Origin: Aridibacter sp.
Lineage (GTDB): Bacteria; Acidobacteriota; Blastocatellia; Pyrinomonadales; Pyrinomonadaceae
Direction of reading: 5' to 3'
DNA length: 64,000 nucleotides
Assembly: GCA_965216195.1 (NCBI GenBank)
Contig: OZ244151.1
Location: 2,510,761-2,574,760 of the forward strand
The notes below the pieces were generated by a model. It did no database searches. It saw only the letters and a list, made by a program, of their open reading frames with translations, and was not told the DNA's origin. How positions within the stretch are numbered: the stretch's first letter is position 1; each line of letters starts with the position of its first letter. The position numbers and the translations under genes were made by a program. Positions 5,426 to 49,118 of the stretch are shown in pieces.

Positions 5426-5537
5426 AACCGATATCGTTAAACCCGTTACGACATCGTAGCCTCAAAACTCGATTTCGAACACCTCCCGAACCCATAAACA
5501 TAACAATATAAAGAGCTTAACATCTGCTCAGAACTCT

Positions 5538-5553
5538 TGGCACGGTGGTTGCA
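5538..5553 (+). promoter_or_regulatory. Sigma-54 (-24/-12) promoter
   Basis: TGGCACG-GTGG-TTGCA exactly matches the consensus TGGCACG-N4-TTGCW. It lies 78 nt upstream of the ATG at 5631 and is followed by AAGGAG at 5618-5623. Confidence 0.7.
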
Positions 5554-5630
5554 GTAGAAGCTTGTGTATTAGGCAGAACCACCGAATTTAGATTCGCTGC
5601 CGCATTAAGCAACATTTAAGGAGAAAAATC

Positions 5631-6638
5631 ATGGGTCGCTATAAAAAATTACTTTCAATCGTTTCGCTTGCAGTGATGACGATGAGTTTATCTATAGTCG
5701 CGTCCGCACAATGGCGCGACAGCCGTGGTAACGGTGGTTACTACGGTAATAATCAGTACAGGAACTTAAATTCAACGATAAAAAACCTGCGCTCTAAAGC
5801 CAGCAGATTTAAGTCGGACCTTGACCACGAACTGGATCGAAGTACCTACAATGGAACTCGCTACGAAGACGACCTCAACCGCCTGGCTGGAGACTTTAGG
5901 AGTGCAGTCAGAAGACTCGACGGCGCATACGATAATAATCGCGATTATGATCGCAGTCGAGACGAAGCTCAACGTGTCCTGAGATATGGATCGCAGCTCA
6001 ACAGTGCTCTTTCGCGTGCAAGAATCAACAGAAACCGCACACTAAGCAGCCAATGGAACAGCATTCAGCGAGATTTGCGTACGATATCAAATGCCTATGG
6101 TTACAACTCCTATAACAACCGCAACGGGCGCTATAATCCAAACCGTAGAGGAACCTACAATCGAAATCGGAGAACGAACAATAGTCGGCGCGGTACGATT
6201 TACGGTCGCGATAACCGGCGGGGTAGATACAATCAAAATCTGCGCTACACAATCTCTAACCTAAAAAGGAAGGCTAATCGATTTGAAGACCTGATGGACA
6301 ACAAGCGCCACCGAAACCGCAACGGAAGCCGATACGGACGCACCAATTTGGAATCACTCGCAGATCGTTTTCTCGATGCCGCAAAAGACCTCGAGGATGA
6401 GTACGATGGCGGAAGAGACCATTACAAGAGTCGAGATGAAGTCGACCGTGTCCTGCGTCTTGGAAGCGAAATTAGCAGAGAGATTTCGCGCGGTTCGGCA
6501 AGTCGCACCGCACGGAGCCAGTGGCGACAGATCGAGCAGGATCTTCGAACGATTGCACGAGCTTACAATCTCCGATACAACGGCAATAGCGGCCGCCTCG
6601 GCAGAATAAGCGATATTTGGAACAACTTTCCGTTCTAA
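5631..6638 (+). CDS. Secreted Arg/Asn/Tyr/Asp-rich protein with an internal two-fold repeat; function unknown
   Basis: Signal peptide MGRYKKLLSIVSLAVMTMSLSIVASA. Two ~115-aa units (about nt 5763-6111 and 6237-6605) share NL..TI.NL..KA.RF...YD..RD...SRDE..RVLR.GS...SQW..I..DLRTI..AY. Confidence 0.75.
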   Translation: MGRYKKLLSIVSLAVMTMSLSIVASAQWRDSRGNGGYYGNNQYRNLNSTIKNLRSKASRFKSDLDHELDRSTYNGTRYEDDLNRLAGDFRSAVRRLDGAYDNNRDYDRSRDEAQRVLRYGSQLNSALSRARINRNRTLSSQWNSIQRDLRTISNAYGYNSYNNRNGRYNPNRRGTYNRNRRTNNSRRGTIYGRDNRRGRYNQNLRYTISNLKRKANRFEDLMDNKRHRNRNGSRYGRTNLESLADRFLDAAKDLEDEYDGGRDHYKSRDEVDRVLRLGSEISREISRGSASRTARSQWRQIEQDLRTIARAYNLRYNGNSGRLGRISDIWNNFPF

Positions 6639-20757: not shown

Positions 20758-20777
20758 TACCCAGCGACCAGCGGGCG

Positions 20778-20829
20778 GTGGACAGTGAGCAGCTGCTTTT
20801 CTGACTACTGATCACTGACTACTGACCAC
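20778..20829. repeat. Word-repeat palindromic element in the mreB-mreC spacer
   Basis: GTGGACAGTGAGCAGC...CTGACTACTGATCACTGACTACTGACCAC. The outer arm GTGGACAGT pairs with ACTGACCAC, and CTGA(C/T)(T/C)AC words recur. Confidence 0.4.
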
Positions 20830-20833
20830 TATT

Positions 20834-22171: not shown

Positions 22172-24061
22172 TTACTTGCGCAACCGCGTTTCGAGGTTAT
22201 TTTCCTTAAGAGAGTTACCTGTCGCTCGCTGGAGCTCAGCGATTGCTTTGTTAAGTTCAATCCTTGCCTGTAGTTCCATGCTTCGCGCAACGATCAAGGC
22301 GGTTTGCCGCTCCAATACCTTATAAATATCCGATAATCCCTCGTTTAACTTTCGCTGTTCGGATTCGTGTTGCTTTTCGCTGTTTTCCCGGGAAATCGCT
22401 GCGGATCTTAATCTCGCTTCAGCAGTTTTTATCGATTGGAGCGCGTTTCTTACGTCAACCTGAATTGCTTGTTCGAGTTGCTGTCTTTGAACCTCAATCC
22501 GCTCGCCCTGTACCAGACTCTTCCCAAGAAACGCTCGCTGAGCCTTGCCATCGGGAGCAAATCTAAACGATACCCCTACTCTAAAAGTAGGGTAGCGATT
22601 CGCAAAAATATCGCTTACAGAGCTAAAATAACCTCCAGTCAAACTGCCTGGCACACTTTGCGGAGGCGCGATCGGTAAAGGGTTGATTGGTTGCATCGTT
22701 GGGTCCAAAGCATTGGCTCTTACAATCACTTCGTTGAGTTTTTCAGTCGAAGCTGTGTTTGAGAAAAAGCTTGCGGCGTCCGGGTTCGCTGTTCCCGAAA
22801 TTCCATTGGATGTATAGCTCGCTACGAAATTGATCTCTGGATCGAGTGCTTCCTTGTAAAAACGCTGATCGTATTCGTTGATCTTTTTCGAAACATCGAG
22901 AATATCCACCTCGATTCTGTTTTCAAAAGCAAGCTCGAGAGCCTCCGGTAAAGAAGTTTTCGGCTTATCGAGCTCAACTTCATCAGTCGGGACAAGCGAT
23001 TCGCTCCAAATCGGATCATTTCGATCCTCTGCGATCAGGCCTTTCAAAACATTCTCAGCGCGGTTTACATTCTCAAGCGCTATGTAAACATTTTGCTCCA
23101 GATTCGCAACCTGAGTTTGGGCGGCGATAATATCTACCGGTGCCAAAACTCCTTCATTTACGAGCCTCCGATTATGTGCGAGCTGTTGTTTCGCGTCGCG
23201 TACTCCCTCTTTCTGAACCTGCAGGTTTCGAAGTGTGTATGTTAAATCCCAATAGGCACGCTGCACGGTAACCGTAATCTCGATCGCCTTCTTTCGAAAC
23301 TGTTTGTCGGTCAGCGATAGGTTTTGCTTCGCGAGTTCAATTACGCGGCGCAGGTCATCGCTTTTTCTCCCGCGAAAAAGCGGTTGGGTGACCTTAAACT
23401 GAAACGAAGAATCGAATTGCGGGCTGAGAATTGAGATTGGATTGTCAGTAGTAAACCGTCGATTCTTGAAGCTAAATTCATATTGCGTTCCGTGTTTTTT
23501 TAGTATGCCTTGATAGCTAATGTCGGCAACGATTGAGGTGTTTGTCGTCGTCGGGCTTGGATTAAAAATGCTCACATTTGGCGAAACTGCTCGTTCGAAA
23601 TAGCTGTTCCCTACAATTCGCGGCGTGAAAGCCAGGTCAGACGCCTGTAAATCAAATTCCGCGATCTTCACGTCCTTTCGAGACACTTCAATATCCTTGT
23701 TGTTTTCAAGGGCTTTGACAATTGCTTCGCGCAGTGCGATCGGTCGTTGAGACAACATATCTACCCCAACCCTACCCAGTTCCGGAAGTTGCTTATCGGC
23801 GCTTTCATAATCAGGTGCAATGCTCGGCACACCCTTCAAATTTTCCGGTTTTACGTTCCGTCCGTCTTGGACCCCTTTTACGGGCGTCGGAATCGGAGTC
23901 GGTGTTACCGAGGGAGAAACACTTTTCGCAGCCGAGATTGGCGTTGGGGTCGGTGTTGGAGTAGGCGTCGGGCTTTGCGCATATCGCTCAGCCGAGCCGA
24001 ATAGAGTCAGTGCCGGCAATAAAATTAACGTGTACGAAATACTGTGTATGTACTGCTTCAT
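22172..24061 (-). CDS. TolC-family outer membrane efflux protein
   Basis: Signal peptide, then a (PT)n linker SPTPTPTPTPTP, then two OEP-type repeats. Last gene of the RND operon. Confidence 0.88.
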   Translation of the reverse strand: MKQYIHSISYTLILLPALTLFGSAERYAQSPTPTPTPTPTPISAAKSVSPSVTPTPIPTPVKGVQDGRNVKPENLKGVPSIAPDYESADKQLPELGRVGVDMLSQRPIALREAIVKALENNKDIEVSRKDVKIAEFDLQASDLAFTPRIVGNSYFERAVSPNVSIFNPSPTTTNTSIVADISYQGILKKHGTQYEFSFKNRRFTTDNPISILSPQFDSSFQFKVTQPLFRGRKSDDLRRVIELAKQNLSLTDKQFRKKAIEITVTVQRAYWDLTYTLRNLQVQKEGVRDAKQQLAHNRRLVNEGVLAPVDIIAAQTQVANLEQNVYIALENVNRAENVLKGLIAEDRNDPIWSESLVPTDEVELDKPKTSLPEALELAFENRIEVDILDVSKKINEYDQRFYKEALDPEINFVASYTSNGISGTANPDAASFFSNTASTEKLNEVIVRANALDPTMQPINPLPIAPPQSVPGSLTGGYFSSVSDIFANRYPTFRVGVSFRFAPDGKAQRAFLGKSLVQGERIEVQRQQLEQAIQVDVRNALQSIKTAEARLRSAAISRENSEKQHESEQRKLNEGLSDIYKVLERQTALIVARSMELQARIELNKAIAELQRATGNSLKENNLETRLRK

Positions 24062-24082
24062 AAACTCAAACCTCTCAAAGGT

Positions 24083-24511
24083 TTAACCAATAAACTGTGT
24101 ATAAATAAATCCACCTAAAATAAAAATTAACCCGCCGATTTCGCCCGCTATCAGGGTGTACATAAAGTACGTTGTCGCAAAATTTCTTTCGCTAAACATA
24201 TTTTCGGTCCGGTTTAGGAAACCTTCTGTCACGTAAGCGATTACTGTTATCGCAAAATAGGCCAATGGAAACCCAATAATCACGAGCTGCCAAACAACGC
24301 GAAACGGCGAAAAATAAATCAAAGCGGCGATTACCAAACTCGCAAAGCTGTAAAAGAAAGATGTGCGATGAGCAATATCGACGTAGACCGGTGCTCGGTG
24401 CTTACGCGAACTCATTATCTTCGAGTATTTCCAAACACCGGTAACCATCCCGCTTAATAGAAACAGCCCTGAAAATAGCAGCGAGATTTTTACTGCCAAC
24501 GGTAGAATCAT
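24083..24511 (-). CDS. Four-TM membrane protein, function unknown
   Basis: Four hydrophobic segments. The start ATG directly abuts the stop of the upstream SRPBCC gene. Confidence 0.65.
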   Translation of the reverse strand: MILPLAVKISLLFSGLFLLSGMVTGVWKYSKIMSSRKHRAPVYVDIAHRTSFFYSFASLVIAALIYFSPFRVVWQLVIIGFPLAYFAITVIAYVTEGFLNRTENMFSERNFATTYFMYTLIAGEIGGLIFILGGFIYTQFIG

Positions 24512-24955
24512 CTATAAAGCCTCCACCCTTTTTTTGATCGCCTCATTCATCAATCGATAACCTTTCTGAATTTTTTCGCCCTGGATCGCCCAAATCAACC
24601 GAACCATCCACCCTGAAAAATCTTCCCCGTGAATAAACTTTACACGCCCTTCTCCAAGCTCCTCGATCATATAAAAATGCTCGCCGCGAAATATACCGAG
24701 CGGCATTTTGCCGACCCAGCGAAGTTCGCGATTTGGTTCCGCCTTTAGAATCGTTGGCGTAAACTTCTGCGCCTGAGCATCCGGTATTTGTACATCGATC
24801 TTTACCTTCTCGCCTTCTTTTGGCTTGCCAACAACGGATGTCACAAACGGATTCCACTCCCCAAACGAATCAAAATCCGTTAAGACGCTCCAAACTTTCT
24901 CCGCCGGAGCATTGATCACAATCTCGGTTCTTATCTGCTTTTTCATTCTCGCCAA
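24512..24955 (-). CDS. SRPBCC (START/Bet v1-like) ligand-binding family protein
   Basis: ~147 aa. The pattern EKVWSVLTDFDSFGEWNPFV...VGK...W is typical of the polyketide-cyclase/SRPBCC fold. Confidence 0.75.
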   Translation of the reverse strand: MARMKKQIRTEIVINAPAEKVWSVLTDFDSFGEWNPFVTSVVGKPKEGEKVKIDVQIPDAQAQKFTPTILKAEPNRELRWVGKMPLGIFRGEHFYMIEELGEGRVKFIHGEDFSGWMVRLIWAIQGEKIQKGYRLMNEAIKKRVEAL

Positions 24956-24965
24956 TAAACCCGAT

Positions 24966-27900
24966 CTATTTTCCTAATAGATTCGTTATCGAACTCGCCG
25001 TCTCCGCCGTCTTTCTACGCACAACCTCCATCCCTTTTGTCATACCCTGAAAAACCTTCAGATTGCCCAGATCATCGAAATAGGAGTAGAAAACCGGTAC
25101 CGCCAAGAGCGTCAGCAAAAGGCAAAGCGCCTGTCCGCCAACGATCAAGACACCTACCGACCGGTTCGTTCCCGCACCCGCACCAGAGGAAAGTACGAGC
25201 GGCATCATTCCCGCAATCAAGGCAATTGTCGTCATCAAAATCGGCCGCAAACGATCACGGTTACCCTGCATGATTGCGTCGTGACGGCTTAGCCCCTTCT
25301 CTCTCAGGTTGCTGATATGGTCGATCACCAGAATCGCGTTTTTCTTAACCACTCCGAAAAGCAGGAGCAGCCCAAGCCCTGAGAAAATATTCACAGTTTG
25401 CCCGGCAATCAGGATCGAGAGAATCCCAAACGGAACGGCAATCGGAAGTGTCAACAGAATCGTAACTGGGTGGATAAACGATTCGAATTGCGCCGCCAAA
25501 ACGATGTACATGAAAATGAACGACAGAATAATCGCGAGCAAGAAATAGAACCCCGCCTTGCCGAGTTCCTTCGATTGCCCGACGTATCCAGCCTTATATC
25601 CTGGCGGAACATTGAGATCCTTAACCGCCCGATCCAAATCTGCTGTGATCGCTGTCGCCGATCCGCCCGGTCTCGTGTTGGCAAGTATTGTTACCTGCCT
25701 CTGCCGGTTGATCCGGTCGATCGCCGATGGGCCGGTTCCCTCTTTCGCTTTTACGACGTTGTCGAGAGTTACCGTTCCCAGTTTTGTCGAGGGAACGACT
25801 AGTTTCTCTAGACTTTCAATATTGCTCCTTGAATCGGTTTTCGCCCTTACGTGAACCTCGTATTGATCGGTCCCCTCGTTAAAGGTCGTCGCCTGCTGTC
25901 CTGCAACCAGGATATTCAGCGCCTGCGAAACATCGCCGACTCTTACGCCCAAATCAGCCGCCTTTTTCCGATCTACCTCGAGCTGCAACTCAGGCTTTCC
26001 GCTAATCAGCGTTGTATCTACATCGACCGCATCTTTGTTGTTTTTCAAAACCTCAACGAGTTTTTCAGAATATTTCTCAAGCTGTTTCAAATCGGGCCCG
26101 CCGATTACAAACTGAACGTTCGCGTTTCTAAAACCACCGCCCGAAAACGCCTGAACGATCTGGACCGCCGTTCTAAGATCAGGTGGATATTTCGCCAGCA
26201 GATCACGCGCCGCAGCCATCAATTCTTCCTGTGATTTCGAGCGGTCGCCGACTTCGGTTAACTTGACGTAGATAGTACCTGCATTTACAACCCTTTGCTG
26301 CCCACCGCCGACCGTAATTAGCGTGTCCGTGACTCCTTCGAGTTTGCGTATGTCGGTCGCGATTCGCTCCATCAAAACCGTCGAGGCTTGAAGCGAGGCA
26401 CCTTCCGTAGTTCTGACAGAGACTTCGAATTGCGACTCATCATCTACCGGCAAAAAGTTCTTACCGACAAACATAAACAGCGGAATGATGCTTAAAACTA
26501 CCAGCAAACAAGCCAACGCGATCACCCAACGATGGCTCATCGAAAACTCAAGCATCTTCGCGTATGTCCGGTCAATGAGCTTGTAAAAACGCCCATCCTT
26601 ACTCCCGCTTTCGACCACTGTCGCGGGTGCGGAGTTCCGAGTTTCGGGTTCAGCGCTATCTGATCCATCTTCCGCTTCCTCGTTCAAGATAAGAGTTTCT
26701 TCCGCATCAGTTTTAGTTTCATTTGTGATAGCCGCTTCGTTTTCTGATTCAGCCTTACTCAAATTGGCCCGCTGAGACTCCGCATCATCCCCGCCGCTTA
26801 TTAACGCTTTGGGTTCTGTGTCCTCTTCCAACTCTGAACCCTGAACTCCAAACTCCGAACTTTCTTCCTTCGGTTTCCATTTGATCAAACGGGCTGCCAT
26901 CATCGGCGTCAGCGTAAAAGAAACGATCAGTGAAACTCCGATCGCGAATGCCGAGGTCAGTCCAAAACTCGACATAAAACGTCCGACGATTCCGCCCATA
27001 AAACCGATCGGCACAAATACTGCCATCAGCGACAGTGTCGTTGCCAAAACTGCAAGACCTATTTCCCGTGTACCCTCAATCGCTGCTCGATAGGGCGACA
27101 TCCCCTTTTCCTCTATGAAACGATAGATGTTTTCGAGCACCACGATCGCATCGTCAACGACGATTCCGACCATCAAAGTAAGCGACAGCATAGTGATCAT
27201 GTTGAGCGTATAACCCATTACATACATTGCCGCAAATGTTGATATGATTGAAGTTGGAATAGCAATTGCCGCGATCAGAGTTGAGCGGAAATTCCAAAGA
27301 AAGAGGAAAATTACAATCGTCGCGAGAATACTTCCGATGATTAAATGCTCTTCGATTGCTTCAAGAGATGCTTCAATGTTTAGAGAATTATCACCTACTA
27401 CCTGAAGCTTATATCCCTTCGGCAGGGTCGGCTCAATCTCCTTTAGAACCTCCTTAACCTCATGAGCAACTGCGACTGTATTTTGTCCGGATTGTTTCGA
27501 AACAATTAGCGTGACAGCCGGTTTACCGTTTAAGAAAGACTGCGAACGCAATTCCTCCGTCCCATCCTCAACCGTACCAATGTCTTTTATCTTTACTTCG
27601 TAACCGCCACGATTCGCGACGATTAAATTCTCAAAATCTTCAACCTTGCGAATCTTACCCAGTGTCCGTATGTTTACTTCGCGGGCGCCTTCATCAATCC
27701 TTCCCCCGGGAAATTCTATGTTCTGAATCCGCATCGCAGCGGTTACTTCAACCGGCGTAATATTGAAGGAACGCATTTTTGCTGGATCAACCCAAACATT
27801 TATTTGTCGGTCGCGCCCGCCAACGATCTGTATCTGCCCGACACCATTTACCGATTCGATCCGTTCTTTAACTTCCTTCTTCGCAACCTCGGTTACGTTT

Positions 27901-28352
27901 TTAAGACTCGTATTTGCCGCAACCACAATTCGCAGAACGGGCGCCGCGCCTGAATCAAGCTTTAAAACCGTCGGCTGCTCTGCCGTTTCTGGAAGATTCG
28001 GAATTACGGTCTGTATCTTATTTTCAACCTCTTGCGCCGCAACATTTACGTCCTTCGAGAGTTGAAACTGAACAAACACCTGACTGATCCCTTCAATCGA
28101 AGTAGACCGCAATTCGTCTATTCCGCTAACCGTATTGGCCGCTTCCTCGATTTTCTCAGTAATCTCGGTTTCGATTTCCACAGGAGACGCTCCCGGGTTT
28201 ACGGTCGTAACCGTAATCGTCGGAAAGTCCACCTCAGGAAATAAATCTACTCCCAAAGAGAAAAACGAAAATGCCCCTACAACAACGAGTGATAAAATCA
28301 GCATCGTTGCAAAAACCGGACGCTTAACACATATTTCTGCTAACCACTGCAT
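24966..28352 (-). CDS. RND (AcrB/HAE1-type) efflux permease with a long acidic insertion in the TM6-TM7 linker
   Basis: N-terminus MQWLAEICVKRPVFATMLILSLVVVG and 12-TM RND architecture. At 1128 aa it is ~80-100 aa longer than usual, owing to the segment EESSEFGVQGSELEEDTEPK...AEPETRNSAP. Confidence 0.93.
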   Translation of the reverse strand: MQWLAEICVKRPVFATMLILSLVVVGAFSFFSLGVDLFPEVDFPTITVTTVNPGASPVEIETEITEKIEEAANTVSGIDELRSTSIEGISQVFVQFQLSKDVNVAAQEVENKIQTVIPNLPETAEQPTVLKLDSGAAPVLRIVVAANTSLKNVTEVAKKEVKERIESVNGVGQIQIVGGRDRQINVWVDPAKMRSFNITPVEVTAAMRIQNIEFPGGRIDEGAREVNIRTLGKIRKVEDFENLIVANRGGYEVKIKDIGTVEDGTEELRSQSFLNGKPAVTLIVSKQSGQNTVAVAHEVKEVLKEIEPTLPKGYKLQVVGDNSLNIEASLEAIEEHLIIGSILATIVIFLFLWNFRSTLIAAIAIPTSIISTFAAMYVMGYTLNMITMLSLTLMVGIVVDDAIVVLENIYRFIEEKGMSPYRAAIEGTREIGLAVLATTLSLMAVFVPIGFMGGIVGRFMSSFGLTSAFAIGVSLIVSFTLTPMMAARLIKWKPKEESSEFGVQGSELEEDTEPKALISGGDDAESQRANLSKAESENEAAITNETKTDAEETLILNEEAEDGSDSAEPETRNSAPATVVESGSKDGRFYKLIDRTYAKMLEFSMSHRWVIALACLLVVLSIIPLFMFVGKNFLPVDDESQFEVSVRTTEGASLQASTVLMERIATDIRKLEGVTDTLITVGGGQQRVVNAGTIYVKLTEVGDRSKSQEELMAAARDLLAKYPPDLRTAVQIVQAFSGGGFRNANVQFVIGGPDLKQLEKYSEKLVEVLKNNKDAVDVDTTLISGKPELQLEVDRKKAADLGVRVGDVSQALNILVAGQQATTFNEGTDQYEVHVRAKTDSRSNIESLEKLVVPSTKLGTVTLDNVVKAKEGTGPSAIDRINRQRQVTILANTRPGGSATAITADLDRAVKDLNVPPGYKAGYVGQSKELGKAGFYFLLAIILSFIFMYIVLAAQFESFIHPVTILLTLPIAVPFGILSILIAGQTVNIFSGLGLLLLFGVVKKNAILVIDHISNLREKGLSRHDAIMQGNRDRLRPILMTTIALIAGMMPLVLSSGAGAGTNRSVGVLIVGGQALCLLLTLLAVPVFYSYFDDLGNLKVFQGMTKGMEVVRRKTAETASSITNLLGK
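26631..26859. repeat. Intragenic, in-frame copy of the GTTCAGAG-word inverted-repeat element
   Basis: Left arm GGAGTTCCGAGTTTCGGGTTCAG (26631-26653). Right arm CTCTGAACCCTGAACTCCAAACTCCGAAC (26831-26859). These are the same words and the same inverted arrangement as the arms flanking the four-helix-bundle gene at 28360/28809. Confidence 0.55.
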
Positions 28353-28359
28353 AATTACT

Positions 28360-28395
28360 GGTGGTTCAGAGTTTAGGGTTTGGAGTTCTGAGTTC
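28360..28395. repeat. Left inverted arm of four-helix-bundle gene cassette
   Basis: GGTGGTTCAGAGTTTAGGGTTTGGAGTTCTGAGTTC. It aligns at roughly 80 percent (by eye) with the reverse complement of 28809-28850. Confidence 0.6.
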
Positions 28396-28397
28396 TT

Positions 28398-28787
28398 CTA
28401 CTTGAACTTACTTCCCTTTAAATCTGAACCTCTAAGATACTTAATAAAACCACCTAGCAAGCTGCCAATTTCACTCAGTTCTTTATAGATTTCGTCAAAC
28501 TGTTCTTGCGTTAAATAATCCTGGTCAAATGCAACATAGAGTTGCGAACGGGTTTCTGCACAAGATGCTTTAGCAATCGTCAGGAAATTAACGAACTCCC
28601 TGTTTCCTTCCCGTTCGAATCCCTCGGCAATATTCGACATGATCGAAACAGTCGAACGCCGGATTTGGTCACGCAGTGCAAAATCCCTGCTAAACTCGCC
28701 AACTTTCGTCAAAGCATAAATTTTGCCGGTCGCCGTCCGAGCAAGCTGCCAGGATTTAATGTCTTCAAATTTCTCGATCTTCGCCAT
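28398..28787 (-). CDS. Four-helix-bundle protein (23S rRNA intervening-sequence protein family)
   Basis: FEDIKSWQLAR...IRRSTVSIMSNIAEGFER...FLTIAKASCAETRSQL is the signature of this family. It sits between the MFP and RND genes. Confidence 0.88.
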   Translation of the reverse strand: MAKIEKFEDIKSWQLARTATGKIYALTKVGEFSRDFALRDQIRRSTVSIMSNIAEGFEREGNREFVNFLTIAKASCAETRSQLYVAFDQDYLTQEQFDEIYKELSEIGSLLGGFIKYLRGSDLKGSKFK

Positions 28788-28808
28788 TTTTAGCTGATAC
28801 TACTTTCT

Positions 28809-28850
28809 TGACCCTGAACCCCGAACTCTGAACCCTAAACCCGAACCCTC
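28809..28850. repeat. Right inverted arm of four-helix-bundle gene cassette
   Basis: TGACCCTGAACCCCGAACTCTGAACCCTAAACCCGAACCCTC. It abuts the MFP stop codon. Confidence 0.6.
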
Positions 28851-30178
28851 TATTGCGCCACAATAACCCCATCCCCTAACTTATCTACGTTGCTGATCGC
28901 TACAACCTCGTTTTCCTGAACGCCGAGTTTGATCTCGATCATGTCGTCTTCAAGTAGGCCCGTCTGCACAACGCGTTCATTTGCGATTCCATCTTTAACA
29001 ACAAAAACAAGATTTCGTTCACCGTCAGCCTTTACCGCTCGTGCCGGAACCATCACGGCAGACTCGGGTTGCGACTGCGTGATCCTCACAGTTGCAAACT
29101 GCCCGGGTTTAAGTAACCCGCCGACATTTTCAATCTCCGCCTCAACCGTCAATGTCCGCGACTGAGGATCGAGACTCGGGAGACTTCGCACGACGGTGCC
29201 GGCAAAATTTCTGTCCGGATACGCCGAAACCTGTGCTGAAACGCCTTGTCCTACACCGACCTTCCCGATTGATTGCTCTGGTACATCTATTTTCAAACGC
29301 AGGATCGCAGTGCGAACAATAGTCGCGATTTTCACGTTTGGCTGGTTTGGTGAAATGTACTCGCCGGGATCGGCATTTCGCTCGGAAATGTAGCCGCTGA
29401 TCGGCGCATAAATAACATTGTCGCTAACTCCCTTTTTCGCCTGATCAACCTGGGTTTGAGCTGTCGCCATTGCCGCTCTCGCATTTCCAACCTGAGTCCG
29501 CGCAGATGCAACTGCCTTTTCGGCCGCCGTTATCGCCTTCATCGCAACTGCCGCATTCGAACGCGCTTCGCTCAGCTGACCGCGCAAGGCGTCGCGCTGT
29601 GACTTTGCTTTATCGTACGCCGAGCGTGAAACATCGCCCGTCGCTAAAAGCTTTTGATAGCGGCTCAATTCCTTTTCCGCTAATTCAAGCTGCGCCTTTA
29701 CCGAGATCACCTGAGAAAAATTATTTATGTTAAACGTCTGCCCGTCTTTTACGCCAAGCCTGACCTGCGCCTGCCGCAAATTCGCGATCGCCTGGTTAAC
29801 GCCCGCTTCTGCTGTTGAGATGGCTTTCCGCTGCTGCTCCACCTGCGCACGCGCTTGTTTTAAGCGTATCTGTGCATCGCCGGCATCGAGTTGTACGAGA
29901 GCGTCACCCCTGCGAACATAGCTGCCAACGTCAAAATTGACTCGAACAACTTTCCCTCCGATAGTCGGCGCGACATTCGACTCGGCGTCGCTCGAAAGTG
30001 TTCCGGTAGCCTCCAAATACGCCGGAATTTTTTCTATCTTCGCTAAGGCGGTTTCGACGTTTACAATTTGCGATTGATCGCTTTCCTTGTTGGCGTTTTC
30101 CTCTGCTGTCGAACCCCCGCAAGCTGAAAAAGTCAAAACCACCGAAAGTAATAAAAATGTTAATTTATATAACTGCAT
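28850..30178 (-). CDS. RND efflux periplasmic adaptor (MFP/HlyD family), lipoprotein
   Basis: Lipobox LTFSACGG, a long alanine/glutamine coiled-coil hairpin, and barrel-sandwich and beta-barrel segments. Confidence 0.9.
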   Translation of the reverse strand: MQLYKLTFLLLSVVLTFSACGGSTAEENANKESDQSQIVNVETALAKIEKIPAYLEATGTLSSDAESNVAPTIGGKVVRVNFDVGSYVRRGDALVQLDAGDAQIRLKQARAQVEQQRKAISTAEAGVNQAIANLRQAQVRLGVKDGQTFNINNFSQVISVKAQLELAEKELSRYQKLLATGDVSRSAYDKAKSQRDALRGQLSEARSNAAVAMKAITAAEKAVASARTQVGNARAAMATAQTQVDQAKKGVSDNVIYAPISGYISERNADPGEYISPNQPNVKIATIVRTAILRLKIDVPEQSIGKVGVGQGVSAQVSAYPDRNFAGTVVRSLPSLDPQSRTLTVEAEIENVGGLLKPGQFATVRITQSQPESAVMVPARAVKADGERNLVFVVKDGIANERVVQTGLLEDDMIEIKLGVQENEVVAISNVDKLGDGVIVAQ

Positions 30179-30186
30179 CTTCTTGT

Positions 30187-30822
30187 TTATTTCTTAATCC
30201 CGTTTAGTAAAATCTTCGCGAACTCCGTCGCTGCTTCTTCATCGGAAATTTTCAGAATTTTTTGATCCGTATCAAAAACAAGATTGTTTATCGAATGGTG
30301 TACAAACATCCCGGAAAACGCCCGCACTACAACACGAGGTTTCAATTCCCTAAACGCACCTTCTTTTTGCCGGAGTTTTATGTATCCGCCGACATGCTCA
30401 TAAATTTCGTTTATTGAGCTTTCGATAAACGAAATCGCAAGGTCGTGTCCTTCCAAAGCCGAATACATCATCAAACGCACAAAGTCTGTGTCGTTGCGAT
30501 GATTCTGAAGAGCGTTAAGCGCCAACGCGTAGAAAACTCCAAAATCATCCCGGTCATCAATCGCCTTCTGGAGCTTTTCAAACGGGTCTTTGAAAAGCGG
30601 GCCGCAGGATTTTTCGTCCAGGATGGCGTGGTAAAGTTCTTCTTTGTTCCTAAAATGTCTGAAAACCATCGCTTCAGAAATCCCCGCCTTTTTGGCGATT
30701 TTCTTCGTCGTCGTCCCCCTAAACCCGTTTTCGCTAAATAGTTTGATTGCTGTCTGGAGTATTTGCGCTCGCCGTTCTTCTCCTGTCATTCGCGAAGTCA
30801 AATTTTCGATCGTTCCGGTCAA
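30187..30822 (-). CDS. TetR/AcrR family transcriptional repressor
   Basis: N-terminal HTH FRGTTTKKIAKKAGISEAMVFRHFRNKEELY. First gene of the efflux operon. Confidence 0.9.
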   Translation of the reverse strand: MTGTIENLTSRMTGEERRAQILQTAIKLFSENGFRGTTTKKIAKKAGISEAMVFRHFRNKEELYHAILDEKSCGPLFKDPFEKLQKAIDDRDDFGVFYALALNALQNHRNDTDFVRLMMYSALEGHDLAISFIESSINEIYEHVGGYIKLRQKEGAFRELKPRVVVRAFSGMFVHHSINNLVFDTDQKILKISDEEAATEFAKILLNGIKK

Positions 30823-30843
30823 AATAGCTTCTCCATTTAGTTA

Positions 30844-30857
30844 AGTAAGTACTTACT
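30844..30857. promoter_or_regulatory. Candidate TetR operator
   Basis: Perfect 14-bp palindrome AGTAAGTACTTACT, 22 nt upstream of the TetR start codon. Confidence 0.55.
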
Positions 30858-31048
30858 AACTTGTAAGATTCGCATTTCGTTGCTACGCTTGTCAAGTAAA
30901 AACCCACTGCCTTAGATCGAACTTTCCTGGCTTCGGATTCGTTACAACTTTTGGAAGACGATTTACATCCGAAAGCTGCGTGGGAAAAAGAGCGCGACGG
31001 TGTTTTTGAGTTTTTAGCAACCAATTGAATAAAGGAGTAAGTATAAAA

Positions 31049-45891: not shown

Positions 45892-45921
45892 GAGTGATAA
45901 GTATTCTTGAACTTATCACTC
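45892..45921 (-). promoter_or_regulatory. Intercistronic hairpin (possible attenuator) between sodN and sodX
   Basis: GAGTGATAAGT pairs with ACTTATCACTC (perfect 11 bp, 8-nt loop). On the mRNA strand ATTTCTTT follows, then the sodX ATG. Confidence 0.5.
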
Positions 45922-45953
45922 ATTACCAATTACCGACCGCCAACTACCAACAA

Positions 45954-47564: not shown

Positions 47565-47675
47565 GTAGTAGGTAGTTGGTGATAGGTAATCGGTAATTGG
47601 TAATTGGTAATTGGTAATTGGTGGTAAGAAAATCGAAATTCAAACGTTATGCAAATACCTATTACCTATTACCAT
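47565..47675. repeat. GGTAATT-word palindromic element (tandem heptamers plus inverted partner)
   Basis: GTAGTAGGTAGTTGGTGATAGGTAATC is followed by four exact GGTAATT units (47592-47619). The inverted partner is ACCTATTACCTATTACCATT (47657-47676). The left arm resembles the reverse complement of 45922-45958. Confidence 0.65.
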
Positions 47676-49118
47676 TTACGGATAAGTATAGGGCGCCTGG
47701 AGGCCGAGCGGGATTCCAAGCAGCCAGTAAATAATTAGGAAGATCACCCAGGTGACAAAGAATGCGATCGAATAAGGCAGCATTAACGAAACCACCGTAC
47801 CGATCCCCGTATCTTTCACATATTTTTGCGCGAATACTACAACCAGCGGGAAGTAAGGCATCAGCGGTGTGATGATGTTTGTCGTTGAATCCGAAACCCT
47901 GTAGGCGGCCTGGGCCAATTCTGGCGAGATGCCCAATTGCATAAGCATCGGGACAAAGATCGGCGCAAGCAAAGCCCATTTCGCGGAAGCCGAAGGCGAA
48001 GAAAATGACGTCAACTGCGGCGAAACCTGAACAGAACTCGCAGCTACAGCAGCTGCATAGGTTTTCATTTCCTCGTCACTGAATTTTGCCGCTTTAAGCG
48101 CATCTTCAAAACCTTTCTTACCAAAAATCTCGCGGTCTTTTATTGTTTCCGCCTTCTTTAAGACTTCCCGGTCAATCTCTGTCTTTCCGAGTTTCTCAAA
48201 AGACTCTTTTGTGAGACTGTAGCTGACCGGTGAACGCATCGGTGAGCTCTGCGGAATCGAAACAGCCGCCAAAATTATCAAGCCAAGCAGCAAAGTAATT
48301 ACACCAGCCCAAAGTCCGCGTTTCTCGTTTGCACCAAGCGACTCCATTTTCGGCATGTCGCTCGCATCGCCGTCAACTTCGACTCCTTTGAGCCTCGGTT
48401 CAATTATCCGGTCGGTTACATACCAGCCAACCGCTACAATCAGCACGCAGGAGGCGGACATAAAAAACCAATTGCTAAGCGGATTAACGGCCCGCGCCGG
48501 ATCAATGATCTGAGCCGCCTGCTGTGTCAGTCCCGAAATCAAAGGATCAAGGGAGTTTGGGATAAAATTCGCACTAAAGCCGCCCGAAACACCGGCGAAG
48601 GTGGCTGCGATTCCCGCAAGCGGATGTCTTCCCGCAGTGTAAAAGATCACGGCACCAAGCGGAATAACCAGTACGTATCCGGCATCGGCGGCAATATTGC
48701 TCATCACTCCAACCAAAACAAGCATTGGCGTTAATACCTTCGCAGGTGTGAAGTTGAGCAAAGCCTTAAGCGATGCATTTATGAATCCGGTGTGCTCCGC
48801 GACCCCTACTCCAAGCAGGGCGACAAGTACGACACCAAGCGGATGAAAACTTGTAAACGTCGTCACCATATTTGATAAAAATGAAGCGATAGACGTTCCG
48901 GTGAGTTGATTGTTAATGACAATCGGCTGCCCATTTCGCGGATCAATCTCGGAAAAGGTCATATTTGACAAAAACATTGACAACAGCCAGACCACAATCA
49001 TCAGAACAAAGAAAAGCACTGCCGGATCGGGCAATTTGTTACCAATCTTCTCGATCGAATTCAGTATTCTCATCATCAAAGATGAATTTGTCGCCGTTTG
49101 CTTTGTTTCTTCTGACAT
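47676..49118 (-). CDS. AbgT-family transporter with atypical hydrophilic central segment
   Basis: N-terminal LNSIEKIGNKLPDPAVLFFVL and C-terminal SASAKWALLAPIFVPMLMQLG...TNIITPLMPYFP are AbgT hallmarks. Residues ~298-377 are charged and lack TM character. Confidence 0.75.
   Translation of the reverse strand: MSEETKQTATNSSLMMRILNSIEKIGNKLPDPAVLFFVLMIVVWLLSMFLSNMTFSEIDPRNGQPIVINNQLTGTSIASFLSNMVTTFTSFHPLGVVLVALLGVGVAEHTGFINASLKALLNFTPAKVLTPMLVLVGVMSNIAADAGYVLVIPLGAVIFYTAGRHPLAGIAATFAGVSGGFSANFIPNSLDPLISGLTQQAAQIIDPARAVNPLSNWFFMSASCVLIVAVGWYVTDRIIEPRLKGVEVDGDASDMPKMESLGANEKRGLWAGVITLLLGLIILAAVSIPQSSPMRSPVSYSLTKESFEKLGKTEIDREVLKKAETIKDREIFGKKGFEDALKAAKFSDEEMKTYAAAVAASSVQVSPQLTSFSSPSASAKWALLAPIFVPMLMQLGISPELAQAAYRVSDSTTNIITPLMPYFPLVVVFAQKYVKDTGIGTVVSLMLPYSIAFFVTWVIFLIIYWLLGIPLGLQAPYTYP

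Follow-up and report, generated by a model that had tools for sequence, protein, structure and literature searches.

Palindromic repeat DNA that is translated within bacterial genes is already known as a kind: the Rickettsia palindromic elements (RPE), the subject of a report by Ogata et al. in 2000, are reportedly selfish palindromic repeats lying in frame within protein-coding genes. Here we describe a variant of it, made of tandem heptamer arrays, in a 64 kb stretch of the genome of Aridibacter sp. (Acidobacteriota; contig OZ244151.1), called the window below and numbered from its first letter. An inverted pair of short arrays lies in frame in the gene of a resistance-nodulation-division (RND) efflux permease, in the part encoding the linker between transmembrane helices 6 and 7 (TM6-TM7), and arrays of the same family flank the gene of a four-helix-bundle (4HB) protein about 1.5 kb away. 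The case resembles RPE in that a palindrome of a dispersed family is in frame in a conserved protein, translated as a surface or loop peptide and apparently compatible with function, and in that several unrelated proteins are affected (here the RND permease, L-aspartate oxidase, an OpuAC/permease fusion and a FAD oxidase). It differs in that RPE share a conserved consensus of 100-150 bp, whereas here we find tandem heptamers whose word varies by locus and lineage, an interior that lies outside the repeat, and an acidobacterial host; there is no sequence relationship between the two, and the analogy is one of behaviour only.

A second point of comparison is the intervening sequence (IVS) of 23S rRNA in Leptospira and Coxiella. 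In Coxiella, an open reading frame (ORF) of the PF05635 family lies within terminal inverted repeats of tandem heptamers (GACAGAT), which fold into a stem of about 28 bp and are cut by RNase III (PMC4990558). The cassette next to the permease (28360-28850) is likewise a PF05635 ORF within heptamer inverted repeats, but it occupies an mRNA spacer between efflux genes and not helix 25 or 45 of 23S rRNA; the copy in the linker encloses no PF05635 ORF and sits inside coding sequence. Heptamer repeats have also been reported, and left unexplained, as GGGAATC inverted pairs in Xanthomonas and as arrays in Nostoc (PMC4692102), and as TAACTGA arrays in Beggiatoaceae (PMC4679880). Like ours, these and the short tandemly repeated repetitive (STRR) sequences of cyanobacteria consist of tandem 7-nt units in 3-10 copies, are mostly intergenic, often form convergent pairs capable of folding into hairpins, and vary in copy number and sequence between close relatives. 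They are reported, however, with a single prevailing word in each genome and with hardly any copies in coding sequence, whereas here there are many words per genome, the arms bracket one gene family and copies occur in reading frame. Repetitive extragenic palindromic (REP) sequences and the REPIN-RAYT systems, too, combine short palindromes in intercistronic spacers with one gene family flanked by inverted copies, but the gene flanked here encodes a PF05635 helical protein and not a Y1 (IS200/IS605-like) transposase, the arms are tandem arrays and not a fixed palindrome, and mobility is here only a candidate reading. In the literature we found no paper on such repeats in Acidobacteria, nor one on a general link between them and PF05635 genes. 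The locus joins three separate literatures, on rRNA intervening sequences, on heptameric simple repeats and on in-frame selfish palindromes.

An inverted heptamer pair in the permease linker

The permease, an inner-membrane protein of the HAE1/AcrB-MdtB type, is encoded by an intact ORF of 1128 aa at 24966..28352 on the minus strand, as are all other genes and arms of the operon described below. It was identified by profile and structure matches: to PF00873 (ACR_tran; E 7e-284) over its full length, in two stretches corresponding to the two halves of the protein, to RND_permease_2 (E 2.5e-266), and to the solved structure of MdtB (E 2e-149). The alignment with MdtB covers residues 7-501 and 590-1095 of the query and leaves residues 502-589 (26586..26849) without counterpart in the structure, whose chain jumps from 510 to 518. 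The TM6-TM7 linker is about 80 residues longer than that of MdtB, the extra residues numbering about 88. In place of the short linker of RND permeases there is thus a long one; the helix before TM7 (588-606) is present, an adaptor and an outer-membrane factor are encoded in the same operon, and membership of the RND family is unaffected by the length of the loop.

The extra segment is acidic and of low complexity, as the initial annotation had described it: the 93 residues spanning the linker (497-589) include 19 Glu and 7 Asp and carry a net charge of -19. Solved RND pumps, in which the corresponding stretch lies between TM6 and the helix before TM7, identify the segment by homology as the cytoplasmic TM6-TM7 linker, and it is predicted to be disordered, both as had been proposed. 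An AlphaFold model built from a shallow alignment of 32 close orthologues (mean predicted local distance difference test score, pLDDT, 54.6) ends a helix at residue 489, renders residues 494-587 as coil with a pLDDT of 24-29, the lowest confidence in the chain, and continues with helices at 588-606 and 608-632. We used this model for one purpose only, to identify residues 494-587 as the least ordered part. The ORF runs through the segment uninterrupted: the peptide reads ...KEESSEFGVQGSELEEDTEPK...NEEAEDGSDSAEPETRNSAP..., as first quoted, the translation across the region is ...ARLIKWKPKEESSEFGVQGSELEEDTEPK...NEEAEDGSDSAEPETRNSAPATVVESGSKDGRFY..., and ALISGGDDAESQR is the tryptic peptide to be expected from the linker of this permease.

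Within the linker, two short arrays face each other in inverted orientation. The 5' arm at 26832..26860 (GTTCGGAGTTTGGAGTTCAGGGTTCAGAG in gene orientation; CTCTGAACCCTGAACTCCAAACTCCGAAC corresponds to the same positions) consists of four tandem GTTYRGR heptamers (GTTCGGA, GTTTGGA, GTTCAGG and GTTCAGA, followed by G) and is translated as SEFGVQGSE. The 3' arm at 26631..26653 (CTGAACCCGAAACTCGGAACTCC in gene orientation) consists of complement-type heptamers (CTGAACC, CGAAACT and CGGAACT, followed by CC) and is translated as AEPETRNS. Between them lies an interior of 178 nt, or about 59 codons (26654..26831). Aligned over 27 nt, the arms are 81% complementary and 180 nt apart; counted from the sequence, the 27 positions hold 22 Watson-Crick pairs and one G-U pair. 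Longer arrays of the same words surround the 4HB gene (28398..28787; 129 aa). Their 5' arm, of about six GTTYRGR heptamers (28807..28850), begins directly past the stop codon of the periplasmic adaptor (MFP) gene, and their 3' arm, of complement-type heptamers (28360..28395), stops a few bases before the start codon of the RND gene (28352). Each linker arm is 77-84% matched to the arms around the 4HB gene, and both pairs have the same polarity with respect to transcription, with the G/T-rich arm 5' and the C/A-rich arm 3'. Inverted-repeat stems can be drawn for both pairs, and at least three 7-nt units stand head to tail in the arrays, the linker arms being made of 3-4 degenerate units; Tandem Repeats Finder (TRF) reports a period of 7 at 28811-28848.

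A pattern search of the whole 64 kb for (GTTYRGR)x3 with up to 2 mismatches gave 10 overlapping matches, against a mean of 0.06 in 100 shuffles, none of which reached 10. The matches fall at exactly four places, 26634-26653 (+), 26827-26860 (-), 28364-28390 (+) and 28807-28847 (-). Together with the arm alignments, this search bears out the earlier claim of an inverted repeat pair in the linker, in frame and of the same family as the arms of the 4HB gene; of the coordinates first given, 26631-26653 was right, and the second arm, placed at 26831-26859, was one base off. As a further property of the arms we considered G-quadruplex formation and set it aside: GGG runs recur every 7 nt in 28807-28850, but the linker arm has GG runs only.

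We regard it as probable, though well short of certain, that the linker arms are tolerated repeat DNA, that is, a translated instance of heptamer-repeat palindromes in an unconstrained loop. They would belong to a class of inverted pairs of short tandem 7-nt arrays that normally lie in spacers between operon genes, and three circumstances may have allowed them to survive in a gene. The TM6-TM7 linker, disordered and acidic, would be unconstrained and free to drift in length and sequence; the G/T-rich (GTTYRGR)n array has no stop codon in any frame; and the 3' arm would have been rid of in-frame stops. Complement-type arms at the junction of the MFP and RND genes contain TGA or TAA in some frames, and the linker arm of this type has a single TGA, out of frame. 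The peptide product of the arms is predicted to be acidic and disordered like the rest of the loop.

Alternatively, the arrays could have grown in place as microsatellites, through independent slippage events, their inverted arrangement and their likeness to the neighbouring arrays being coincidental. In many bacteria no long simple repeats are more over-represented than heptamers, an excess put down to slippage of the polymerase (PMC4679880, PMC4692102), and many orthologous linkers carry single arrays of unrelated words. Yet the word of the linker occurs at only four sites in 64 kb, although heptamer arrays built on other words are present in the window too (47566-47680 with GGTAATT, 45920-45951 with its complement, and one near 20800 with CTGACYA), so that a word common to the linker and its neighbour is not trivial. 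The 81% complementarity of the linker arms over 27 nt and the tendency of linker words to follow the junction words of their own locus (see below) are also hard to reconcile with chance, and we consider growth in place highly improbable.

The source of the window is a metagenome-assembled genome and repeats are error-prone, which raises the question whether the repeat segment has been mis-assembled and the real gene is split or frameshifted. The region 26000-29200 was assembled identically in four public runs, with zero indels or variants, and in a fifth assembly from another sample, 99% identical over the region, all arms are unchanged and the reading frame is the same. The ORF, which had been expected to be neither split nor frameshifted, is hence intact in five independent assemblies, and orthologues in dozens of genomes retain an open frame through equally repetitive linkers. 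Given this agreement between the four runs and the fifth assembly, the chance of an assembly artefact or a pseudogene is close to negligible.

Variation of the linker among orthologues

Our comparison set comprised 120 orthologous proteins and 83 orthologous loci with DNA (P- and L-numbers denote orthologous proteins and related loci, and WIN the locus of the window); the names borne by homologues and related loci assign the organism to the Pyrinomonadaceae. The linker is hypervariable: between fixed anchors on either side of it, the 120 orthologues have 44 to 140 residues. In the closest orthologue (P0002/L081), which is 91-92% identical elsewhere, the linker is only 19 aa long and free of such words, and L082 (87-88%) has a 30-aa linker that is essentially two abutting arms. 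The 5' arm is present at the orthologous position in four lineages (WIN, L082, L001 and L003), and its sequence turns over among them; the 3' arm has decayed in L001 and L003, with a remnant at the homologous place in L003, and the segment is absent from L081. Because the 5' arm is orthologous in four lineages, the arms are old and not the result of a recent lineage-specific hop, and because the 3' arm has decayed in two of these lineages and the whole segment is missing from L081, pairing in the linker is not conserved. The lineage specificity first suggested holds against the closest orthologue, and does not hold across the lineages that share the 5' arm. In the 99%-identical strain the arms have zero substitutions, hence no compensatory changes can be read from it.

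The interior is homologous to the linkers of L001, L002, L003, P0009, P0013, P0016 and others (motif xIxNE...ENLIxNE) and, judged by this homology, is native sequence and not foreign cargo. Several orthologues have equally long and acidic linkers without GTTCAG-type words, such as L002/P0008 with 103 aa, and on the same grounds expansion of the loop characterises the orthologue group more widely. These results do not support the view that one inserted element had expanded the linker by 80-100 residues: the arms encode about 17 of the approximately 88 extra residues, and the interior has its homologues in armless orthologues. Equally long acidic linkers lacking the words had been named beforehand as the observation that would count against an insertion, and it has been made in part. 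We also searched the interior for a remnant of the 4HB gene and rejected this candidate, as tblastn gave no match at E up to 100 and the blastn similarity was confined to the arms.

Other linkers carry arrays of their own. In L008, (GGACTGA)n...(TCAGTCC)n face each other as an inverted pair, with a fold z of -4.7; in L004, GTTCAAR arms enclose long GGATTCA arrays, with a fold z of -8.9; and many others hold single arrays of unrelated words, or arrays in direct orientation. The RND coding sequences of 69 loci, 223 kb in total, contain 30 period-7 arrays, from 21 loci; all of them lie inside the linker zone and none elsewhere. The linker of L010 (3173-3205) contains (GACAGRA)n, which is the Coxiella IVS word GACAGAT, probably by coincidence.

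In all likelihood the pump is functional and the segment a loop that is carried along passively, and the arms probably matter little to the pump itself; a linker that tolerates about 90 residues of arbitrary acidic sequence would be useful for tags or fusions. Nothing supports the description of the pump as essential in the initial annotation, as it is one of several RND systems, which are usually dispensable.

Heptamer arms at the MFP-RND junction

The product of the 4HB gene matches PF05635 (23S_rRNA_IVP) / TIGR02436 at E 1e-35 and shows weak similarity to bAvd. Of the 83 other loci, 22 have an orthologous gene at the MFP-RND junction, at about 5450-5995 in the coordinates of L001-L083. They include loci whose permease is no more than about 65% identical, and the gene invariably has the orientation of the operon; it has long been established in this spacer. 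Most of these genes are bracketed by inverted arrays that extend from next to the MFP stop codon to a few bases before the RND start. By size, the spacers form three groups: some are shorter than about 60 nt, others measure 63-150 nt, and the largest, of 450-780 nt, accommodate a small gene. Those longer than about 60 nt mostly contain inverted heptamer arrays. In many loci the junction holds an ORF-less hairpin with heptamer arms. The 4HB ORF is truncated in L003 and L053, which suggests that 4HB genes are decaying towards such hairpins.

The words of the 4HB arms differ by lineage (GTTCAGR, GTCCAAA, GTTTCTG, GTCTCAA and AGTCCTG), with the two arms still complementary. Duplexes between arms of the same locus have a mean energy of -36.1 kcal/mol, against -21.3 kcal/mol for arms of different loci, and when 3' arms are ranked as partners, a locus's own comes in the top four in 29 of 45 loci. 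The junction arms change together, a pattern in the sequences that points to DNA-level concerted evolution. In 30 junction stems, positions that deviate from Watson-Crick pairing include 29 of G-U type and 32 of A-C type (p 0.8); as selection on the RNA of the transcribed strand would favour an excess of G-U, complementarity is apparently maintained in the DNA. Known mechanisms that would maintain it are template-switch correction of quasi-palindromes and slippage inside arrays.

The words of the linker are related to those of the junction. Linkers have more 9-mers in common with the junction arms of their own locus than with those of other loci, the shared 9-mers summing to 66, a value reached by 12 of 5000 permutations. 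In 8 of 17 loci, where 3.75 would be expected, the linker word is at most one mismatch from the junction word of the locus itself. Both tests treat loci as independent though they are related. Since linker words follow the junction words of their own locus, exchange between arrays 1.5 kb apart is suggested.

The same material might also be explained by a miniature mobile element, namely a derived form of the 4HB cassette without an ORF, akin to a miniature inverted-repeat transposable element (MITE) or a REPIN, that moved once into the linker and was then translated. The arms match the cassette 1.5 kb away in family and polarity, the ORF-less hairpins and the truncated 4HB ORFs agree with such a derivative, close relatives differ by presence or absence, and near-identical 32-nt copies of an arm exist at other loci (see below). 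Neither pair, however, shows a target-site duplication, the flanks GAAGAAA...CCGCGAC and AATAGAG...ACCAGTA containing no direct repeat; no transposase is associated, and the 4HB protein is without known catalytic function. A single hop also fits poorly with an interior that is homologous to the linkers of armless orthologues, with a 5' arm that stays in its orthologous place while its sequence turns over, and with the many linkers that hold single or directly oriented arrays. We therefore think such a transposition unlikely, although it is the chief alternative.

In other lineages the MFP-RND spacer takes up other small genes, apparently as a hot spot for such cargo. The 4HB cassette of L081 (4304-6000) is interrupted, between gene and 3' arm, by an insertion sequence with a DDE transposase, and in L083 (5133-6000) the spacer holds an HD-domain protein gene preceded by an ORF-less heptamer hairpin. 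The spacers of L013, L042, L060 and L005 encode a putative PIN-like protein of about 146 aa starting with MRIYFDNCSLQRPLDD, and those of L039, L064 and L066 a protein of about 144 aa with a putative SRPBCC fold.

Folding of the linker RNA

Both the minimum free energy (MFE) and the centroid folds of the linker RNA pair the two arms. The fold in the window is no more stable than those of shuffles (z -1.3), for which reason we do not use its stability as evidence of a functional stem, and the linker hairpin of L082 is no better than random (z 0.14). Rfam gave a chance-level match only (IS009, E 0.92, with 17.5 bits where the gathering score is 117), and no match to rRNA was found in 24000-31000.

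The pairing of the arms would be of interest if they were kept for a functional mRNA stem, serving as an RNase III processing site or tuning translation or stability between the permease halves. The strong stems in the same loop of L008 and L004 and the covariation of the junction arms are consistent with such a role, and the same architecture is cut by RNase III in Coxiella (PMC4990558). A cut within the coding region, however, would be harmful, as it would leave a 5' half without stop and a 3' half without start, and the orthologue alignment shows no conserved in-frame start past the 3' arm. The z scores of the window and of L082, the decay of the 3' arm in L001 and L003, the loss of the segment from L081, the lack of a G-U excess in the junction stems and the lack of an Rfam family match argue in the same direction. 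By analogy with Coxiella a functional stem is conceivable but, in our judgement, very unlikely; were the intragenic stem processed, the pump mRNA would be cut between its halves, amounting to an unrecognised layer of control of RND expression. If the arms are tolerated repeat DNA, as we favour, the mRNA stem that they form would be a by-product and would go without RNA processing.

Proposed origin of the linker arms

On the reading of the arms as tolerated repeat DNA, the arrays would arise and stay alike through processes acting on DNA. Each array would undergo replication slippage, and the two arms would exchange sequence, with each other and with arrays close by in the same genome, by template switching or gene conversion. 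The linker arms would have been copied from nearby arrays and then altered by slippage and decay, an origin that fits the 5' arm in four lineages, the loss of the 3' arm in two, and the collapsed segment of L082 and its absence from L081. Selection on the structure of the protein or of the RNA would not be required, and we infer that the arms are neutral.

Several points weigh against this account. The inverted arrangement returns in the same loop in WIN, L004, L008 and L082, which pure neutrality does not predict. The 32 nt at 26830-26861, comprising the 5' arm, recur with one mismatch on another contig of the same metagenomes, where they are flanked by a (GGATTGT)n array; the depth of this contig is about that of the window genome in three of four runs, and it may represent a further copy in the same genome, its flanks having no match in the window or in the fetched loci. 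The 3' arm of a hairpin on an unrelated JGI contig (Ga0299912_10005515; L094:8090-8170) is identical to the same 32 nt, this hairpin being ORF-less and situated between an acetylornithine aminotransferase-like gene and argG. Such recurrences fit a mobile element as well as a restricted vocabulary of repeats; among the fetched loci and metagenome contigs, only the arms recur at other loci, and the interior matches orthologous linkers. Added to these are the relatedness of the loci that the word-sharing tests treat as independent, the low overall confidence of the structure model, and the nature of the four public runs containing the locus, which are Logan contigs (assemblies) of unrecorded library type.

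Heptamer arrays and 4HB genes at other loci

The arrays of the efflux operon are part of a widespread class. In 1.08 Mb of related Pyrinomonadaceae loci TRF found 235 period-7 arrays, about one per 4.6 kb, and 146 of them are located outside long ORFs, where they usually come as inverted pairs at close spacing and show many different words; arrays are thus numerous and mainly intergenic, and the window itself has three further array sites. Such a density, of one heptamer array per few kilobases in a little-studied family, with inverted pairs whose arms co-evolve, offers a tractable system for asking how palindromes get copied and whether the 4HB protein acts on them. The permease is not the only protein with arrays in frame. 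L-aspartate oxidase (NadB) has them between its FAD-binding and C-terminal domains (L043:13768-13836, L042:11918-11998 and L037:11723-11790), those of L043 being an inverted pair (AGATTCC / AATCTGG) translated as ...FQIPDSRLENEKSGIWNLESGI...; further in-frame arrays lie between the domains of an OpuAC/permease fusion and at the N-terminus of a FAD oxidase.

Outside the Acidobacteriota, we made a spot check of eight 4HB genes (L084-L091) on cyanobacterial and Riemerella plasmids, from the genera Nostoc, Riemerella, Pseudanabaena, Leptolyngbya, Calothrix, Geminocystis and Picosynechococcus. Five of the eight are accompanied by inverted short tandem arrays and two by direct ones (Pseudanabaena and Nostoc PCC 7120), with none in Calothrix, and several stand between co-oriented genes of one operon, such as cas6/cas4 and cas10/cmr3. 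In Riemerella the arms (GGTTYAA) are similar to the words of the acidobacterial arrays. The same architecture is thus seen around 4HB genes in Acidobacteriota, Cyanobacteriota and Bacteroidota and in the 23S rRNA IVS of Coxiella, and the linker arms are of more interest as an entry to this association of heptamer palindromes with 4HB genes than on their own. One could go further and propose that 4HB genes with inverted tandem-heptamer arms form a cross-phylum class of insertion cassettes of intercistronic spacers and rRNA helices. In the RNA, cleavage of the stem would remove or isolate such cassettes, and they would leave ORF-less hairpins that could spread, even into coding linkers; we consider so general a scheme decidedly unlikely.

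Neighbouring genes and further arrays in the window

The operon is headed by a gene for a TetR-family regulator (30187..30822), followed by the MFP gene (28850..30178), both assigned by profile matches. It ends with a gene for an outer-membrane factor (OEP/TolC-like; 22172..24061; profile match), and genes for an SRPBCC protein and for an unknown protein also belong to it.

The arrays of other words in the window are intergenic. The one at 47566-47680 is a hairpin of (GGTAATT)n and its complement, and a lone complementary array (45920-45951) lies 1.6 kb off. Between the two GGTAATT sites are a quinone-oxidoreductase-like gene and a gene for nickel superoxide dismutase (HCDGPCGVYDP motif), which a putative maturation peptidase adjoins. 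At 20760-20830, an imperfect hairpin of CTGACYA heptamers occupies an intergenic spacer.

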